Below, piece after piece: positions 1 through 32,560 of a stretch of DNA of 64,000 nucleotides. Under the pieces are notes generated by a model. That model did not search any database. It was not told where the DNA came from and saw only the letters and a list, made by a program, of their open reading frames with translations. Origin of the DNA: Planctomycetota bacterium (GTDB lineage: Bacteria > Planctomycetota > UBA1135 > UBA2386); contig JBFWWV010000004.1 in NCBI GenBank assembly GCA_050245995.1, positions 234,104 through 298,103 of the forward strand, written 5' to 3'. The translations under genes were made by a program, and so were the position numbers. Positions within the stretch are counted from its first letter, which is position 1. Each line of letters starts with the position of its first letter.

Positions 1-3000
1 ACCAACGCGAATCCGACCTCGAGCAGCTGCGCGCGCTGCTGCAGGCCGCGACGCCGGTGGCCGATCCCGCCGCGGGGCTCGGGCGGCTGCAGGAGCTGCG
101 CACGGCGGCGGCCGGCCCGGACGCGCTGGCGCGCGACCTGTGCGAGGCCGAGGGCCGCTGGCTGCGCGCCGAGGCGCACGGCCGCAACGAGCTGGCGGCG
201 GCGGCGACCGCCTGCGGCGATGCGCTGCTGCGCCTGCGCGCGCGCAGCTGCAGCCGGGCGCCGGCCGACGACGTCGACGCCCTGTTCGAGGTGGCGATGG
301 CGATCGCCGGCCACCGGCAGCGCGGCGACGCCGAGACCGCCGACGCGCTGGCGGCGCAGCTGGTCGCGCGGCTCGAGGCCGTGACCGACACCGACCGCCT
401 GTGCCAGGAGGCCGACGAGCGCTGGGCGCAGCTGACCGGCGCCGACGACGACCGGCCGTTGCGCGAGCAGGTCTCGGATCTGCGCGCCACCGGCATGCTG
501 CTGCGCGAGCTCGCCGACCGCAACGACAGCGCGCGGCTGCGGCGGCGCTCGCGGCGGGCGCTGCGCGCGGCCGACGACCGCGAGCTGCAGGCGCGGCTCG
601 AGGCGCTGCTGGGCCACCGCGGTGTGATCGCGCTGGAGACCGGCAGCTTCGTGCTGCTGCTGCTGGTGCTGGTCGTGCTGGTGGTCGAGGCCACGGTCGC
701 GCTGACCGACCGGCAGCTGGTCTGGCTGCACTGGGTCGACGGGCTGGCCTGCGCGTTCTTCGTCGCCGAGTTCGGGCTCAAGCTGGCGCTGGCGCCGCAC
801 CGGGGCTCGTGGTTCCTGCGCAACGTGCTGACCGACCTGCTGCCGGCGCTGCCGGCGGTGCTGTGGCTGCTGCCCGGCCCCGCGCTGCCGGGCGCCGCCG
901 ACGACGTGGTGATGGTGCGGCTGCTGCGGCTGCTGCGCGTGACCTGGGCGGCCCGCTACGTGCAGGCGCTGCGGCCGCTGCTGCGCACCGCGCGCCTCGT
1001 GCTGCTGATGGTGCGCGGCATGGACGGGCTGGTGCGCCGGTTCCGGTCGCTGCTCGACCGGAACTTCGTGTTCCTGGCCGGCGCGCCGGTCGAGTCGGTC
1101 GCGCAGGAGACGCGGCGCGACGTGGTGTTCGCGGCGCTGGTGCGCGAGCGGTCGCTGTTCGCGGCGCTGCCGGCGGACCGGCGACACGGCGTGCTGGCCG
1201 CGCGACTCGCCGCGGTCACGGCGCGCGCCGACGCGTTGCCGGGCGCCTGGCAGCAGTCGGTCGAACGCGCGCCCGAGCGCGACATCCCGGTCGAGCGCGC
1301 CTGCGAGTTCCTGTGGTCGCTGCGCGCCAGCGACGTCGACCGCTACCTGCGGCCCGCCGACCTGCGCGCGCTCGACCGCGTCGCCCGCGTCGTCAGCACC
1401 GCGCCGCTGTGCTGGCTTCCGATCCTGCGGCGGTTCGCGGTGCGGCCGCAGCCGGCGCAGCCCGAGGAGCGGGTGATCGCGCTCGGCCGCAACGTCGCCG
1501 ACTGGCTGATCGGCTGGCAGGACCGGCTGCAGTTCTTCGCCGACCTGCACGGCATCGTCACCGGACCGCAGATCCTCGACCGCGTCGCCAGCGCGATGGT
1601 CAAGGCGTCGCAGCGTCCGGCCGTGCGCCTCCTCCTGTTCGGCGGCCTGTTCCTGCTGTTCGACCTGCTGATCGGCAACGAGAGCGTCAGCCGCTTCCTG
1701 AAGAACATCGTCGTCGGTCCGCTGCTGATCCTCGGCTCGTTCTGCCTGGTCACGCTCGGCACCGGCTGGTGGCTCAAGCGCGTCGCCGGCGAGGCCAACG
1801 AGACCTTCCGGCTGCTCAGCGAGGCGCACTTCGTGTCGCTGCTGAGCCTGAGCAAGCGGCGGCACGAGCGCGCCGACACCGAGTTCCTGGGCGAGCGGGT
1901 GCTGGCCGACGTCACGCCCGGGGACCCGGTCCAGCTGCTGCGGCTGCAGCTGGCCGGGGCGCGCGCCGGCGTGCCGGTCGACGTCGTCGGCTTCGACGAC
2001 CGCGAGGAGCGGCTCGGCAGCGCGGTGGCGCTGCTGTACCTGCACTTCCTCGACGGCGCCCTGCTGCACGGCAGCGACGTCAAGACCACCGAGCAGCTGC
2101 TGGCCAACCTGGCGCTCGACAACCTGCGGCAGGCGCACCTGGGCTACTCGCGGCGCGACAAGAAGCGGCTGTGGCAGCTGCGGCTCGACGACGGCTCGGT
2201 GCTGCGCGGCCCGTTCCTGTGGTTCCGCTTCATCACCGAGTCGATCACCGTCGAGACCAGCAAGCGCATCGCCGAGTACAACCGCCGCTGCGTGCCGCTC
2301 GAGCGGCTCGCGGAGCTCTCGCCGGCCCGGCGGCAGGCCCTGCACGACTGGCTGCAGCAGCGCCGCGACCCGAAGGCCGGGCGCACCGTCGAGCGGCTGG
2401 AGTCGCCGGACGCGGCCAGCGGCTACACCACGACCGAGTTCCACGCGCTGCACTTCCTGACCGTCGATCGCGCCCGCGACGACCACGTGCGCGCGCTGTT
2501 CGGCGACGAGGTGCTGGCGGCGCTGCAGCAGGACCGCCGCAACATGATCCGCGAGATCTTCGGCATGCGGCCGGCGCGCGAGCTCGCGTCCAGCACCCGC
2601 GCGTTCAACGCCTGGAACCTGTACTGGTCGCGGCTGTCGCACGGCCGCGTGTTCCTGCTGCCGGTGTGGGCGATCGCGCGGGCGTTCGGCGGCGTCTGGT
2701 GGTTCGGTGGGCGCATGCGGCAGATCGTGCGCGAGGTGCTGCGGCCGCAGCTCGCGCAGCAGCAGCGCGAGTCGGGCGCGGCCACGTTCGGCGTGGCGCT
2801 GCGCAAGATCCACCGGATGAAGGCGCCGGGCCTGCTCGAGGCGATCCGCACGCGGCTGGCGCTCGACCCGGTCTACGGCGGCGCGCCGGCCGGCTGGAGC
2901 GACGTCGACGCGGCGGTGGCGCACGGACGCTCGCAGCTCGAACGCGACCTCGACTTCCTGCAGCTGCACGAGCGCGAGCGCGCGGTGTTCCGCGACCAGG

Positions 3001-3602
3001 CCGCCTGGAATCGCGAGCACGTGGCGACGCTGCACGCGGCGCTGTCGTGGCTGCCGCCGCTCGGCGATCCGCAGGCGTCGGCGGCCCTGCGGCGCGACGC
3101 CGAGCTGGCGGTGACGGTGGCGTGGCTCAGCGACCGCGACGCCGTGCGCACGCTGCTCGCGGCCGAGCCCTGGCGGCTCGGCGACCTGCCGGAGATCCTG
3201 CAGCGCGAGGTGCCGATCGGCCTGCTGCGCCGCGCGTGCTGGGCGGTGCAGGACCTGTTCGGGACGCACCCCACGGCGGTGTTCGCGCGCCGCCAGGGTC
3301 TGCGGTTGGCCCGGCGCGAGCGCCGCAACCTGCGCGCTGCCTGGGTCGACGAGCAGCGCGTGCGCGCGGTGATCGCGGCCTGGAACGCGCTGCCCGCCGG
3401 CACCGGCCCGGCGCAGGCGGCGCTCGACCGGCTGCGCGCGTTCTGGCGCGGCGGCGAGCAGGTGCGGCGCGAGCTGACCGCGCTGCGCGCGATCCAGTCG
3501 CTGTCGGTGCTCGACGTGCGCAACTACCGCGAGGCGGTGTTCGAGATCGGCGGCTACCAGCAGGACGGCGAGGACCCGGCGCCGGCGCGGAGCCTGCCGT
3601 GA
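1..3602 (+). CDS. 5'-truncated large membrane protein with voltage-sensor-domain (VSD)-like 4-TM module, no pore domain
   Basis: Track ORF 57..3602 begins at GTG, but the frame stays open to the window edge (first full codon at 3), so the gene is 5'-partial. Four TM helices: S1; S2 with acidic FFVAEFGLKL; S3 RNVLTDLL; S4 arginine ladder RLLRLLRVTWAARYVQALRPLLR. No S5-P-S6 pore or selectivity filter follows. There is a later 2-TM hairpin and a ~600-aa cytoplasmic C-terminal region of unknown function. The stop overlaps the next start (GTGA). Confidence 0.7.
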   Translation, partial: QRESDLEQLRALLQAATPVADPAAGLGRLQELRTAAAGPDALARDLCEAEGRWLRAEAHGRNELAAAATACGDALLRLRARSCSRAPADDVDALFEVAMAIAGHRQRGDAETADALAAQLVARLEAVTDTDRLCQEADERWAQLTGADDDRPLREQVSDLRATGMLLRELADRNDSARLRRRSRRALRAADDRELQARLEALLGHRGVIALETGSFVLLLLVLVVLVVEATVALTDRQLVWLHWVDGLACAFFVAEFGLKLALAPHRGSWFLRNVLTDLLPALPAVLWLLPGPALPGAADDVVMVRLLRLLRVTWAARYVQALRPLLRTARLVLLMVRGMDGLVRRFRSLLDRNFVFLAGAPVESVAQETRRDVVFAALVRERSLFAALPADRRHGVLAARLAAVTARADALPGAWQQSVERAPERDIPVERACEFLWSLRASDVDRYLRPADLRALDRVARVVSTAPLCWLPILRRFAVRPQPAQPEERVIALGRNVADWLIGWQDRLQFFADLHGIVTGPQILDRVASAMVKASQRPAVRLLLFGGLFLLFDLLIGNESVSRFLKNIVVGPLLILGSFCLVTLGTGWWLKRVAGEANETFRLLSEAHFVSLLSLSKRRHERADTEFLGERVLADVTPGDPVQLLRLQLAGARAGVPVDVVGFDDREERLGSAVALLYLHFLDGALLHGSDVKTTEQLLANLALDNLRQAHLGYSRRDKKRLWQLRLDDGSVLRGPFLWFRFITESITVETSKRIAEYNRRCVPLERLAELSPARRQALHDWLQQRRDPKAGRTVERLESPDAASGYTTTEFHALHFLTVDRARDDHVRALFGDEVLAALQQDRRNMIREIFGMRPARELASSTRAFNAWNLYWSRLSHGRVFLLPVWAIARAFGGVWWFGGRMRQIVREVLRPQLAQQQRESGAATFGVALRKIHRMKAPGLLEAIRTRLALDPVYGGAPAGWSDVDAAVAHGRSQLERDLDFLQLHERERAVFRDQAAWNREHVATLHAALSWLPPLGDPQASAALRRDAELAVTVAWLSDRDAVRTLLAAEPWRLGDLPEILQREVPIGLLRRACWAVQDLFGTHPTAVFARRQGLRLARRERRNLRAAWVDEQRVRAVIAAWNALPAGTGPAQAALDRLRAFWRGGEQVRRELTALRAIQSLSVLDVRNYREAVFEIGGYQQDGEDPAPARSLP

Positions 3603-5011
3603 GCGCGGACCCTGCTGCGGACCCGGGCCCGGAGCGGGAGCGCGCGCAGCGGCACCGCGCGCTGCTGTGGCTGTGCGTGGCGGCCGTGTGCGGGCGCTGG
3701 CTGCTGGCAGCGCGCACGCCGGTGCCGGCCGAGGACGGCGTCAACTACCTGTGGATGGCGCAGCGGTTCGCCGCCGGCGACGCGGCGGCAGCGCTGGCCG
3801 AGCCGTTCTCGCCGCTGTGGCCGCTGCTGCTGGCGCTGCCGATCGCCTGCGGCGCGCCGGCGTTCCTGGCCGGCCAGGTCGCCGGCGCGCTGGTCGGCGG
3901 GCTCGGGATCCTGCCGATCGCCGCGATCGCCGAACGGCTGCGGCGCGGCGCCGGCCTGCCGGCCGCGGCGCTGGCGACGACGTCGTCGGTGCTGGCGCGC
4001 ACCGCGCCCGAGGTGCTCACCGAGCCGCTGTTCGTGCTGGTCGCGGGGCTCGGCGCGTGGGCCGGGCTCGCGGGCCGGTACTGCTGGCTCGGCGTCGCCA
4101 CCGGCGCCGCGTTCCTGGTGCGGCCCGAGGGCGCGATCCTGATGCTGCCGTGGCTGGTGTTGCGGCCGCGCGCGGCGTGGCGCGCGCTGCCGTTCGCGGC
4201 CGGGCTGATCGCCGCCTTCGCCGCGTGGCGCATGGCCTGCGGCCACGGCTTCGACCCGGTGCCGAAGATGCAGTTCCACGAGCTGCGCCAGGACCTCGGC
4301 GGCGCGCGCGGCGACCTGCCGGCGAACGCGCTGCAGGCGCCGGGCGTGTTCCTCGAGGCGTTCGCCGGCGCGGCGGTGCTGGCGGTCCTGTCGCTGTGGC
4401 CGCGGCGGCGCGTCGCGCTGCGTGCGCCGGACCCGACCGCGCGCGTCGCCGCCGACGACGCGCGCCGCGGCGAGCGGGCGCTGTGGCTGCTGCTCGGGCT
4501 CGGCGCGCTGGTGATCTGCACGTTCGTCGCGCGGCGCCGGTTCTTCGTGTCCTGGGCGCCCGCGGTGCTGCCGCTCGCCGGCGTCGCGCTGGCGCGCATG
4601 CAGGCGATCGGCGCGCGCGGCCGCGAACTGCTGCTGGCGCTGTGCTGCGGCCTCGACCTGTGGACCAGCTTCCACGGCACCATCGCCGCCGACCGCTTGG
4701 CCGAGCGGCTGGTGGGCGAGTACCTCGGTGCGCGGCTCGCGCCGGGGCAGACCGTGGTCGCCGACATGACGCGCGTGCTCTGGTTCGCCGGCCAGCGGCC
4801 GCTGCCGCCCCGGCACTTCGACGCCGCGTACTACCTGGAGCACGCGGCGCGGCCCGAGGTCGAGTTCGTCGTGCTGCACGAGGAGAGCCGCCGCGGCATC
4901 TACGGCGACGTGGTGCGCGGGCTCGGCGCCGCGTTCGCGCGGTTCGACCTGCCCGGCGGCCTGCGCGATCTGGCGGATCGGCGCGGCATCGCGGTGTTCG
5001 TGCGCAGGTAG
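3599..5011 (+). CDS. GT-C fold membrane glycosyltransferase (ArnT/PMT-like, GT39/GT83-type)
   Basis: C-terminal real part of track ORF 140..5011. Start taken as GTG 3599, in frame and overlapping the upstream stop. About 10 TM helices. Periplasmic-loop motif AEDGVNYLW after TM1, typical of polyprenyl-phosphate-sugar-dependent GT-C enzymes. The 140..3598 part of the track ORF is Arg-rich off-frame noise. Confidence 0.6.
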   Translation: MSADPAADPGPERERAQRHRALLWLCVAAVCGRWLLAARTPVPAEDGVNYLWMAQRFAAGDAAAALAEPFSPLWPLLLALPIACGAPAFLAGQVAGALVGGLGILPIAAIAERLRRGAGLPAAALATTSSVLARTAPEVLTEPLFVLVAGLGAWAGLAGRYCWLGVATGAAFLVRPEGAILMLPWLVLRPRAAWRALPFAAGLIAAFAAWRMACGHGFDPVPKMQFHELRQDLGGARGDLPANALQAPGVFLEAFAGAAVLAVLSLWPRRRVALRAPDPTARVAADDARRGERALWLLLGLGALVICTFVARRRFFVSWAPAVLPLAGVALARMQAIGARGRELLLALCCGLDLWTSFHGTIAADRLAERLVGEYLGARLAPGQTVVADMTRVLWFAGQRPLPPRHFDAAYYLEHAARPEVEFVVLHEESRRGIYGDVVRGLGAAFARFDLPGGLRDLADRRGIAVFVRR

Positions 5012-30419: not shown

Positions 30420-30487
30420 GCGCGCATCATGGCGCGCGCGTCCGACGAAGCAGGCATGCGAATGCGAGAACGCGACGAGCCGGTGGG

Positions 30488-30516
30488 TTGACAGTCTGCG
30501 TATGCTCGCTATGGTG
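30488..30516 (+). promoter_or_regulatory. near-consensus sigma70-type promoter (TTGACA-N16-TATGGT)
   Basis: TTGACA at 30488, then a 16-nt spacer, then TATGGT. No annotated CDS lies downstream for ~900 bp; the region contains the hairpin, mini-ORF and tRNA-like element. Confidence 0.4.
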
Positions 30517-30678
30517 CGCCGCCCGCTGAAGAACGGCGGCCCAATCCGAGCACGAGCATGAACCTCTCCTATCGCGAACCCGGCATTGCGAGCCTGCGAC
30601 TGCTGTCGCGGTCCTCGGTGCGCGCACCCGCGGTGGGGCGATCCGGATAGAAGGGCCAGGCGCGCCCTTCGGTCGCAC

Positions 30679-30713
30679 GGAGAGCCTCGCCGGGTCGCCC
30701 GGCGAGGCTCTCT
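30679..30713 (+). other. 15–16-bp perfect-stem hairpin (GGAGAGCCTCGCCGGG-TCG-CCCGGCGAGGCTCTCT)
   Basis: Direct inspection. Only a partial U-tract follows (CUCUCUGCGUUGG). Could be the terminator of an sRNA started at the upstream promoter, or a regulatory/REP-like structure. Confidence 0.5.
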
Positions 30714-30773
30714 GCGTTGGTGGCCTGCTCATTCCGCATTCGCGCGCGCGGCGCGCACCCAGGAGGAAGATCG

Positions 30774-30815
30774 ATGAACGAACTGCACCCATTGGACAAC
30801 CAGACTTCGGTGTGA
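30774..30815 (+). other. 13-codon mini-ORF (MNELHPLDNQTSV) with perfect SD AGGAGG-N7-ATG
   Basis: AGGAGGAAGATCG-ATG. Too short to call a CDS with confidence. Candidate leader or micro-peptide upstream of the tRNA-like element. Confidence 0.3.
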
Positions 30816-30903
30816 TGCCGTCCGGCGGCGCGCCCGCGGCGGCCCTGCCGTCCCGCGCGCGCGTTCCGCGACCACGGGTTCGACCGGTGTCACGCGCGAT
30901 GTA

Positions 30904-30973
30904 CCGCGAGTAGCTCAGTGGCAGAGCACAGGACGACCTCCTGGGGTGGCGGGTTCGAATCCCGCCTCGCAGC
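30904..30973 (+). tRNA. tRNA-like element, probable tRNA pseudogene/remnant (canonical D-arm and T-arm, 5-nt anticodon loop)
   Basis: Acceptor CCGCGAG/CTCGCAG with one C·A mismatch. D-arm is UA GCUC AGUGGCA GAGC. T-arm is GCGGG UUCGAAU CCCGC. The anticodon arm CAGGA-CGACC-UCCUG has only a 5-nt loop (central GAC). The sequence was validated against the antisense track ORF 30890..31300 translation. Confidence 0.4.
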
Positions 30974-31441
30974 CGGACCTTGTCGGTCCATCCCTATTGG
31001 AAAGGGGCGCATCGCACGGGACCACCGCCGGGGACCGACCGGACGACCCGCCGTCCGTGCGCAATGACATTGCGCGCCGACTGCGAACCGACAGGACCGC
31101 TCTGCAGCCGTCTCCACGCGACCGTGCCTGTCACGGCGAGGGCCGCTGCTCCGTACCTCGCGAGGGTCCGCGCATTGTGCTCGAGATCGGGCGCGCGGGA
31201 TCGGGGAGGGCGGGGCGGCGCCTCGCCGCGATGCGCGGCCACAGGCGCGGCTCCGCGGCGCGTCGGGGTCGTCCCGAGGTCCGCCGGCGGTGGCGCCCAC
31301 TTCCGCCGGTCGTCCACACCACCAGCACGTGCCGCACTGCGCGGCAGATCACCGCCGTCGCGCGACCGGGAACGCGCGCGCCGGCGCCTTCGATTCCGTT
31401 CCCGAGACACCACGCGAAGCCCTCCGCGAGAGGAGGCACTC

Positions 31442-32560
31442 ATGTTCCGTACGCACATCCAGCAGAACGAGCTCGGACTCCTGTTCCGACGCGGCGACTT
31501 CCAGCGCGTGCTGGGCCCGGGCACCTGGGTCCTGCCGGGCGTCTGGTTCGGCCGCGACCGGCTCGAGATCGTCAACGTCCTCGACACGCGCTTCCGTCAC
31601 CGGCTGCTCGACCTCCTGGTCCGCACCGACGAGCTGCGCGAGCGGCTCGAGGTCGTCGACCTCGGCGAAGGTCAGCGCGCGCTGATCTGGCGCGACGGCC
31701 GCCTGTTCGACCTGGTCGGCAGCGGGCTGTTCGCCTACTGGCGCGCGCCCTACCGGCTGAAGGTCGAGACGTTCTCGGTCGACGACGTCCGCTTCGCCCA
31801 CCCGCAGCTCGACGCCGTGCTCGGCCTCGACGCCGCCCGCACGCAGCTGGCGGCCGTCGACGTCGCGCCGCACGAGCAGCTGCTGGTGCGGCGCGGCGGC
31901 GAGTCGTTCGCGACGCTGGGGCCGGGACGCCACGCGTTCTGGACCCGGGCCGGTTCGGTGACCTGGACGGCGGTGGACCTGCGCGAGCAGATCGCCGACG
32001 TCCAGGGCCAGGACGTCATGACCGCCGACAAGGTGACGCTGCGGCTGAACCTCGTCGTGTCGTGGCGGATCACCGACCCGGTGCTCGCGACCACGGTCGT
32101 CGACCGCGCCGGCCAGGCCGTCTACCGCGAGGCGCAGCTGGCGCTGCGCGCGGCGGTGGGCGGTCGGGCGCTCGACCAGCTGCTCGCCGACAAGGAGACC
32201 GTCGGTGCCGAGATCCGCACCGCCCTGCGCGGGCGTGCGGCGGAGTTCGGCGTCGCGATCGCCGCCGTCGGCGTGCGCGACCTCGTGCTGCCCGGCGAGA
32301 TGAAGACGATCCTGAACCAGGTCATCGAGGCCCAGAAGCAGGCGGAGGCCAACCTGATCCGTCGCCGCGAGGAGACCGCGGCGGCGCGTTCGCAGGCCAA
32401 CACCGCGCGGCTCCTGGCCGAGAACCCGGTGCTGCTCCGCATGAAGGAGCTCGAGGCGCTCGAGGGCATGCTCGCGGGCGCGAAGGTCACCTTCGTGGTG
32501 GGGCAGGGCGACCTCGGTCGTCAGGTGCGGGCACTCGCCCTCGGCGACGAGGACGGGTGA
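31442..32560 (+). CDS. SPFH/band-7 (stomatin/prohibitin-like) domain protein
   Basis: Real part of track ORF 30980..32560 from M155. SD GAGAGGAGG before ATG (MFRTHIQQNELGLLFRRGDF). SPFH core QDVMTADKVTLRLNLVVSWRI, followed by a coiled-coil C-terminal region. Confidence 0.85.
   Translation: MFRTHIQQNELGLLFRRGDFQRVLGPGTWVLPGVWFGRDRLEIVNVLDTRFRHRLLDLLVRTDELRERLEVVDLGEGQRALIWRDGRLFDLVGSGLFAYWRAPYRLKVETFSVDDVRFAHPQLDAVLGLDAARTQLAAVDVAPHEQLLVRRGGESFATLGPGRHAFWTRAGSVTWTAVDLREQIADVQGQDVMTADKVTLRLNLVVSWRITDPVLATTVVDRAGQAVYREAQLALRAAVGGRALDQLLADKETVGAEIRTALRGRAAEFGVAIAAVGVRDLVLPGEMKTILNQVIEAQKQAEANLIRRREETAAARSQANTARLLAENPVLLRMKELEALEGMLAGAKVTFVVGQGDLGRQVRALALGDEDG

Follow-up and report, generated by a model that had tools for sequence, protein, structure and literature searches.

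Organization of the slipin locus

We analyzed a 64,000-nucleotide (nt) stretch of DNA from a Planctomycetota bacterium (assembly GCA_050245995.1, contig JBFWWV010000004.1, positions 234,104 to 298,103 of the forward strand), hereafter the window, and focused on the interval that separates a GH2 gene from a gene for a slipin, a stomatin-like protein of the Band-7/SPFH family. This interval contains an RNA element with the shape of a tRNA, and we are highly confident that the locus is a b7a-tRNA-type RNA and slipin module. The module is here a stand-alone variant, with its own promoter and an elaborate, conserved leader.

The gap between the start of the GH2 gene and the slipin gene spans 30420..31441 (1022 nt) and is noncoding; a frame plot of GC content at third codon positions (GC3) detected no strong coding signal from 30420 to ~31440. 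A kinase gene is also among the flanking genes. The slipin start codon was placed at 31442, 467 nt downstream of the tRNA-like element, by the GC3 frame plot and by a Shine-Dalgarno (SD) sequence preceding an ATG; in the program-made list of open reading frames (ORFs), the Band_7 domain starts far inside a long ORF. A first-pass annotation of this DNA was correct in stating that no protein-coding gene intervenes, but the gap is about twice as long as it had assumed. The features that it listed are all found in the sequence, with coordinates right to within 1 nt. All features below are on the plus strand, and the evidence for each is given in brackets.

30488..30515, plus strand: sigma-70-type promoter, TTGACA-N16-TATGGT (10 of 12 consensus matches)
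30558..30650, plus strand: leader ORF1, 30 codons, MNLSY..., stop TAG (ORF position kept in relatives)
30677..30715, plus strand: strong terminator-like hairpin of 15-17 base pairs (bp), AGCCTCGCC...GGCGAGGCT (stem near-invariant in relatives)
30761..30815, plus strand: SD AGGAGG and the 13-codon mini-ORF2, MNELHPLDNQTSV, stop TGA (SD-led ORF in relatives)
30815..30890, plus strand: 5′ domain, a 76-nt irregular stem-loop (RNAalifold and covariation count)
30904..30974, plus strand: tRNA-like RNA fitting the b7a-tRNA description (ARAGORN, Rfam, family alignment)
30975..31007, plus strand: two small hairpins right after the tRNA-like 3′ end (fold; relatives' alignment by eye)
31018..31296, plus strand: domain of ~280 nt closed by a long-range helix (covariation of the closing helix)
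31368..31403, plus strand: complementary GGGAACG ... CGTTCCC pair, a possible helix (conserved blocks; pairing by complementarity only)
31421..31436, plus strand: anti-SD CCTCC/SD GGAGG hairpin before the slipin start codon (motif conservation)
31442..32560, plus strand: slipin (Band-7/SPFH, stomatin-like) gene, 372 amino acids (Band_7 E = 7e-29)

For comparison, we assembled 80 genomic loci encoding relatives of the SPFH protein together with seven closer loci (87 in all); the leader was compared among 15 close relatives, whose slipin proteins are 64-79% identical to that of the window. The entire ~1-kb leader is alignable in these 15 loci, with the promoter, the hairpin, the mini-ORF and the tRNA-like element at matching relative positions, and the flanking genes are different in every close-relative genome. 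The module is therefore self-contained, and consists of ~1 kb of noncoding DNA and the slipin gene. The interval, first described as an orphan locus, is tied physically and evolutionarily to the downstream slipin gene. The impression of a small-RNA or leader-peptide regulatory unit gains from the conserved positions of promoter, hairpin and mini-ORF, and the recurrence of these features and of the tRNA-like element exceeds what chance would give.

Six-frame BLAST searches with the upstream regions returned protein matches in every frame and on both strands, which indicates that the conservation is at the RNA or DNA level and not at the protein level; a small conserved protein between the tRNA-like element and the slipin gene was rejected on this reading of the matches. 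A minus-strand ORF at 31131..31439 (102 amino acids, weak GC3 signal) was likewise rejected as a gene: the aligned relatives differ by many indels, and the stretch falls within the covariation-supported, helix-closed domain. Among the relatives, the structured leader draws spurious ORF calls in GC-rich genomes; gene callers reported leader-spanning, Pfam-less minus-strand ORFs of 205 and 321 amino acids at L089 2233-2850 and L090 793-1758, respectively. When the leader region was searched against Rfam 15, both at the gathering threshold and at E ≤ 10, tRNA was the sole real match. Weak matches of the hairpin to CRISPR-DR, ftsZ-DE and microRNA families were judged to be due to chance.

A tRNA-shaped RNA that is unlikely to decode

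The element at 30904..30974 is called as tRNA-Val(GAC) by ARAGORN and scores 47.5 bits against the Rfam tRNA model, for which the gathering threshold is 29. It forms a complete four-arm cloverleaf, and the Infernal alignment bears out the peculiarities first noticed in the sequence: a 5-nt anticodon loop, CGACC, and a noncanonical C·A at pair 2-71. If the loop is forced to 7 nt, it reads ACGACCU, with C33 and C37. The discriminator is C73, and CCA is not encoded. Neither ARAGORN nor Rfam called a transfer-messenger RNA, and no Y-RNA or YrlA match was returned by Rfam at E ≤ 10.

An alignment of 68 orthologous elements defines the family, and the covariance model R1 was built from these sequences; the window element scores 69.1 bits against R1, itself being part of the training alignment. 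Across the 68 sequences the cloverleaf is 92% paired, with a covariation score of 0.636 vs 0.17 for shuffled alignments and ~0.1 for slid registers. The anticodon loop has 7 nt in 51 elements, 6 nt in 11, 5 nt in four and 4 nt in two, and 23 different anticodon triplets occur. Some of the called "anticodons" have two or four bases, one is a stop anticodon, and Ser and Leu anticodons are called on bodies with a short variable arm. Near-identical bodies carry loops that differ in sequence or length (L003/L004 and L062/L063/L064). The 51 loops of 7 nt retain a residual canonical pattern: 39 have U33, and 49 have a purine at position 37. Pairing at the terminal 1-72 position is absent from 39 of 67 elements, and an in-register CCA is encoded in 14.

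Column entropies divide the molecule: the D and T arms vary by 0.06-0.5 bits, and the acceptor and anticodon arms by 1.5-1.8 bits, yet these remain paired. The RNA thus appears to be constrained only in the tRNA elbow formed by the D and T arms, and free to lose its anticodon loop. Loops of 4-7 nt with 23 different triplets indicate that the element does not decode, and we consider it, from these comparisons, a tRNA-shaped RNA. The first-pass annotation had named a normal-tRNA score from a tRNA finder as an outcome that would refute it, and formally this outcome occurred, since ARAGORN and Rfam both call a tRNA; anatomy and comparison nevertheless argue against decoding.

Linkage to the slipin gene and to RNA-repair genes

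In 68 of the 87 loci, ARAGORN detected a same-strand tRNA or tRNA-like gene at a distance of 200-1100 nt upstream of slipin. R1 or direct alignment added nine more (L001, L004, L005, L008, L017, L023, L027, L028 and L030); the L001 element is cut by the contig end. With five loci left out because their upstream sequence is too short, and the Rohdeia mirabilis version included, a tRNA-like gene precedes slipin in ~78 of 82 assessable loci, labeled as Planctomycetota, Phycisphaerae, Acidobacteriota, Gammaproteobacteria and others. Judged from these genomes, the linkage of tRNA-like RNA and slipin appears to be obligatory.

RNA-repair genes accompany part of the family. As queried by tblastn with the Escherichia coli proteins, RtcB is adjacent to slipin in ~20 of 80 loci, and RtcA or RtcR in several. 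Steroidobacteraceae-type loci possess RtcB directly downstream of slipin; several Phycisphaerae-labeled loci follow the order rtcB-rtcA-tRNA-like-slipin, and where such a locus is long enough, rtcR is found further upstream. The same search, to which a Citrobacter nucleotidyltransferase was added, found no match in the 64-kb window or in the loci of its closest relatives; it covered RtcB, RtcA and RtcR, with Ro60, Pnkp/Hen1 and archease outside it.

Several of the distant loci display further peculiarities. The cultured planctomycete Rohdeia mirabilis Pla163, for which a complete genome is available, carries the module with a terminator-like hairpin and the 5′ domain (L022 5200-6000); the D arm of its tRNA-like element is replaced by a GUGUUC...GAACAC hairpin, and the element was for this reason missed by both ARAGORN and R1. 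Two tandem tRNA-like genes lie upstream of slipin in many loci (L007, L011, L016, L061, L065-L067, L074-L079), and the distal copy of the Phycisphaerae type has a long variable arm and a degenerate D arm (L007 5304-5386, L011 5358-5441, L016 5357-5443). A tRNA-His(GTG)-like gene is conserved 83-116 nt downstream of slipin in Phycisphaerae-type loci (L007 7205-7277, L011 7206-7278, L012 7203-7275, L036 7202-7274, L018 2710-2782); its acceptor stem contains three G·U pairs (GUGGCUG / CGGUCGC), and it scores 61-64 bits with R1 in L007, L012 and L018. Three Acidobacteriota-labeled loci have 11-13 tRNA genes directly after slipin (L009 2471-4859, L013 7271-8682, L019 ~2290-3930), and in the L013 array CCA is encoded in most genes read and at least one gene has an aberrant D arm. 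These arrays recall the trn tRNA operon of Anabaena, which is induced by stress and belongs to the TrcR regulon together with a slipin gene and rtcB (PMC10272220).

Enterobacterial slipin homologs of 37-39% identity were reached via a search of a plasmid collection. In these bacteria slipin and a nucleotidyltransferase gene behind it form an operon located between yjbD and lysC (L081 5463-7916, L082 3957-7910, L093 2501-5916); 1625 of 5426 complete E. coli genomes have this related operon in full. In Citrobacter the operon is divergent from rtcR, the RNA-repair activator gene, and the E. coli WAT copy adjoins a zeta-toxin gene. No tRNA was called at the enterobacterial homologs by ARAGORN, Rfam or R1, and the ~530-nt upstream gap of E. 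coli WAT has no annotated RNA gene. Inspection of the Citrobacter gap by eye revealed a sigma-54-like TGGCAC-N5-TGGCA, a reduced 5′ core motif and a lone T-arm-like hairpin.

The leader upstream of the tRNA-like element

A promoter scan found one site, the near-consensus sigma-70-type promoter, vs 0.0 expected from shuffled sequence; its end, at 30515, had previously been placed 1 nt further on, at 30516. At the corresponding place all 15 close relatives have TTGAC(A/G)-N16/17-TAnnnT, with 11 of 12 consensus matches in L091 (TTGACA-16-TACAAT). An ORF of 23-60 codons that opens with ATG a short way past the -10 box is likewise present in 15 of 15 relatives. The position of its stop is conserved, 20-47 nt upstream of the conserved hairpin motif in the relatives (TGA there, TAG in the window).

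The hairpin that follows is as exceptionally stable as the first-pass annotation had it: arms at 30680-30694 and 30698-30712 form 15 perfect bp around a 3-nt loop and are extended by G30679·U30713. RNAfold lengthens the stem to 17 bp and places it in the -40 kcal/mol region. Compensatory changes occur among relatives at the base of the stem, and the stem sequence AGCCTCGCC/GGCGAGGCT is almost invariant. A T-rich tail follows the hairpin in relatives, e.g. TTTTCGTTT or tails of the UUUUCGUUU type. Part of the 5′ arm, GCCTCGCCGGG... (30684-30703), recurs ~540 nt downstream at 31220-31239 with 80% identity; the repeat falls inside the helix-closed domain, and a similar CGCCTCGCCG is found in L003. 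A long-range alternative pairing involving the hairpin arm and this repeat is possible.

Mini-ORF2 is present as first reported: AGGAGG at 30761-30766, a 7-nt spacer, ATG at 30774 and TGA ending at 30815, so that its 13 codons occupy 30774..30815. In 14 of 15 relatives an SD is followed here by an ORF of 8-14 codons, whose start codon is ATG, GTG or TTG, and 13 share the same TGA end. Both leader ORFs thus keep start, frame and stop, and in neither is the peptide sequence conserved. In 10 of 14 relatives the TGA of the mini-ORF is followed by C, and in the window by U (UGA-U, 30813-30816). UGA-C terminates translation weakly; the C could just as well be imposed by the helix beginning at this site.

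The first base pair of the 5′ domain includes the A of the mini-ORF2 stop codon. The core of the domain has the arrangement CCGGCGGCGCGC - variable hairpin - GCGTTCCGCGA, and RNAalifold gave 93% of cells paired and 11 pairs with compensatory changes; none of 500 shuffles scored as high, and slid registers were 32-53% paired. With the consensus CCGGC(G/T)GGCGCGC - variable hairpin - GCG(C/T)GT(T/A)CCG(C/T)GA, the core extends beyond the window's clade: in Phycisphaerae, Acidobacteriota, Rohdeia and Steroidobacteraceae loci it precedes the first tRNA-like element by 30-40 nt. Rfam 15 holds no entry for this domain. The terminator-like hairpin, the mini-ORF, the long-range helix and the anti-SD were found in the window's clade only.

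The leader downstream of the tRNA-like element

At the sites of the two small hairpins in 30975..31007, the relatives carry hairpins of other sequence, as judged by eye. The following domain is closed by pairing of 31018-31028 with 31287-31296; this helix is 93% paired among relatives, with compensatory changes at four of seven pairs. Inside it are hairpins at 31050-31084, 31114-31136 and 31252-31268. The tip of the first is the 17-nt palindrome GCGCAATGACATTGCGC (31059..31075), which is indeed present and had been proposed as an operator-like sequence. At the palindrome site the relatives have hairpins of differing sequence (by eye; these pairs are outside the counted set), which argues for an RNA stem-loop within the larger domain and not for an operator.

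Closer to the gene, 13 of 15 relatives have a CCTCC that precedes the slipin GGAGG by 3-8 nt. An nhmmer profile of the 3′ leader matched only L001 among the distant loci, and this part of the leader is therefore clade-specific.

The slipin protein

The slipin product is stomatin-like in sequence, with Protein Data Bank matches to E = 1.7e-21, and its database name is "slipin family protein". A structural model with a mean predicted local distance difference test score (pLDDT) of 85.6 shows three beta modules at the N terminus together with an SPFH core and a long helix. With a maximum hydropathy window of 1.41, the sequence gives no evidence of a transmembrane segment. Stomatin, HflK/C and prohibitin ranked at the top of a Foldseek search, and the longest alignments, of 412-474 columns, were to major vault protein (E = 6e-12 to 1e-9). 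On this predicted model, the vault likeness would be a resemblance in layout and not membership. The protein had no PADLOC match and no tblastn match in phage genomes, and only a generic "lipoprotein" family matched in PHROG; by these searches, it appears unmarked as a known defense or phage gene.

A model for the module and its alternatives

SPFH/Band-7 modules with a novel tRNA-like molecule are said to have been described by Burroughs and Aravind in 2016. By a later account, the b7a-tRNA of that study is a predicted noncoding RNA that strongly resembles tRNA and adjoins genes for a Band-7 protein and RtcB (bioRxiv 10.1101/312249). The class was predicted in 2016, with a role in bacterial RNA repair; our literature search for SPFH proteins together with tRNA-like RNAs or tRNA arrays found nothing relevant.

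Taken together, a model for the module emerges. We infer that a single transcript would start from the promoter at 30488-30515, and that leader ORF1 and the hairpin at 30677-30715 may form a checkpoint of the attenuator type. RNA reading through it would carry the 13-codon, SD-led mini-ORF2, whose stop lies on the first base pair of the 5′ domain (30815-30890), so that translation of the mini-ORF could open the base of that domain. There would follow the tRNA-like element, the ~280-nt helix-closed domain and the hairpin that pairs the slipin SD with CCUCC, which would add translational control. The tRNA-like RNA, keeping its D/T-arm elbow, would most likely be excised by tRNA-processing enzymes and could partner an oligomeric slipin when the cell responds to damaged RNA or to translation stress, a role modeled on the proposal for the RtcB-linked versions of the module. 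With no RtcR, RtcB or RtcA at hand, the two leader ORFs and the hairpins may couple expression to ribosome performance. Taking identification and mechanism together, we consider this the probable explanation of the locus; the mechanistic chain by itself is advanced tentatively, as something less than an even bet.

Data from Anabaena are in keeping with the response proposed: in the trcR mutant, a slipin family gene is derepressed 42-fold, its upstream neighbor 71-fold and rtcB 77-fold, along with a 26-tRNA operon, and repression by TrcR is relieved by translation-inhibiting antibiotics (PMC10272220).

A number of points weigh against this model. The Anabaena support is indirect, and the slipin concerned, alr0740, is a possible member of the subfamily of the window. 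Our match to b7a-tRNA (Burroughs & Aravind 2016, NAR 44:8525) was made via its description in bioRxiv 10.1101/312249, according to which the RNA had no experimental validation as of 2018, and for the window the link to RNA repair appears to run through homology of the slipin/RNA pair only. At 70% GC, ORFs arise readily by chance. The tail of the window hairpin, CUCUGCGUUGG, is U-poor with no U-tract, and a simple terminator scan called the hairpin in neither the window nor the relatives. From promoter to hairpin, RNAalifold recovered the terminator hairpin only, with no conserved antiterminator or alternative pairing, and a stem so nearly invariant in sequence suggests more than an ordinary terminator. 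The SD-sequestering hairpin has modest folding energies, with z-scores near 0 vs shuffles.

The main alternative is that the tRNA-like fold acts only in cis, within a complex 5′ untranslated region of the slipin mRNA and never in trans: it could, for example, define the mRNA 5′ end through RNase P/RNase Z cleavage, be a stabilizer, or work as a cis sensor. The apparent single transcription unit, with no conserved second promoter between the hairpin and the slipin gene, agrees with this, as do the conserved structured RNA on either side of the element, the sequestered slipin SD, and the enterobacteria, which retain just a T-arm-like hairpin and the 5′ core motif. Nevertheless, the RtcB-linked tRNA-like genes sit mid-operon (rtcB-rtcA-tRNA-like-slipin), often in tandem and many encoding CCA, which fits excised products of tRNA size, and an elbow near-invariant across phyla suggests recognition by a trans factor. 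We therefore regard an exclusively cis role as unlikely.

A decoy or sentinel function would make the element a bait for anticodon nucleases or tRNA-damaging toxins, its cleavage triggering or titrating a response and its loops varying through an arms race. Loops that are hypervariable even between near-identical bodies, as in L062/L063/L064 and L003/L004, would be expected of such a bait, and the residual U33 and purine 37 of the 7-nt loops would suit it as well, as would the linkage of relatives to RtcB, RtcA and RtcR; RtcR reportedly responds to damaged tRNAs (PMC7790460). A quarter of the loops, including that of the window, have only 4-6 nt; these are poor mimics of an anticodon loop, and are what relaxed constraint would produce. 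We find this function very unlikely.

That the element is a genuine, if odd, tRNA-Val(GAC) gene adjoining an SPFH gene by chance would account for the ARAGORN call and the above-threshold Rfam score of 47.5 bits, but is extremely improbable: the loop is of 5 nt (or of 7 nt with C33 and C37), pair 2-71 is a C·A mismatch, orthologous positions hold 23 other "anticodons", and the linkage to slipin extends across phyla. Position 73, moreover, is C, and the Val identity of E. coli tRNA includes an A73 discriminator. To a scar of integration at a tRNA gene, with the palindrome as operator, we give practically no credence, for although tRNA genes are common integration sites and the element is degenerate, the cloverleaf is complete, its 29-nt 3′ part is single-copy in the 64-kb window with ≤3 mismatches allowed (no second 3′ half), the palindrome site differs among relatives as described, and in at least 77 loci, all with different neighbors, the arrangement recurs in a constant position ahead of a gene of this family. 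No integrase lies beside the element, the flanking genes being GH2, slipin and kinase, and integrases further away were not searched for.

Returning to the trans-acting RNA and slipin module that we prefer, a more ambitious version would combine a soluble, vault-like slipin cage, an RNA partner made of the widely conserved 5′ domain and the tRNA-like body, and a ribosome-stalling sensor built from the two leader ORFs and the hairpins, in a lineage with no RtcR. We think this decidedly unlikely; if true, the module would be a self-contained detector of, and responder to, translation or tRNA damage.

The window locus and its relatives extend what was predicted for the class in four respects. The tRNA-like RNA appears to be constrained in its elbow only and can dispense with the anticodon loop; a second conserved RNA domain travels with it across phyla; the module is able to exist without RtcB, RtcA or RtcR, behind an ordinary promoter and two leader ORFs, which points to ribosome-coupled control; and the slipin protein is predicted to be a soluble stomatin relative with a vault-like layout. 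Automated pipelines will label such elements as ordinary tRNAs with arbitrary anticodons, and add spurious leader ORFs. Tractable hosts are available in the E. coli genomes with the related slipin operon and in the cultured R. mirabilis Pla163.

Comparison with known systems

Transcriptional attenuators of the trp/his type and translational attenuators of the erm/cat type also place short, nonconserved ORFs before a terminator-like hairpin or structured element, and the sequestered SD of the window leader is a further likeness. The window differs in that no antiterminator pairing was found, no run of regulatory codons was seen, and the hairpin stem is conserved in sequence within its clade.

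Compared with the cage-forming SPFH proteins stomatin and slipin, HflK/C, prohibitin and QmcA, the window slipin is predicted to be without a membrane anchor, and ~180 residues of three beta modules replace the N-terminal anchor. No NfeD partner gene was seen beside slipin in the window and the relatives' gene lists inspected. The overall layout of beta repeats, SPFH-like shoulder and cap helix resembles that of major vault protein, and a small RNA related to tRNA would be associated with both, vault RNA being small and tRNA-related. The window slipin has three modules vs nine, and 372 vs ~860 amino acids, and a closed cage or RNA packaging would be hypothetical for it.

YrlA and Y RNAs, with Ro60 (Rsr) and the rsr-yrlBA-rtcBA operon, offer another parallel: a tRNA-mimicking noncoding RNA beside a protein that forms a ring or cage, with a link to RtcB. 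Y RNA/YrlA and b7a-tRNA have been proposed to be functionally interchangeable (bioRxiv 10.1101/312249). The neighbors in the window are not Ro60, Rfam gives no Y-RNA or YrlA match, and the mimic is a full four-arm cloverleaf, whereas YrlA is a tRNA-like domain on a Ro-binding stem.

The closest correspondence is with b7a-tRNA itself. As in that system, a tRNA-like cloverleaf lies immediately upstream of a Band-7/slipin gene on the same strand, and homologous loci of the module carry RtcB, RtcA and RtcR. Unlike it, the window and the loci of its closest relatives have none of these three beside the module, which instead possesses its own sigma-70 promoter, two leader ORFs and a terminator-like hairpin upstream, and a long 3′ structured domain and an SD-sequestering hairpin downstream. 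The locus family thereby offers a concrete, testable anatomy for the b7a-tRNA/Band-7 class.

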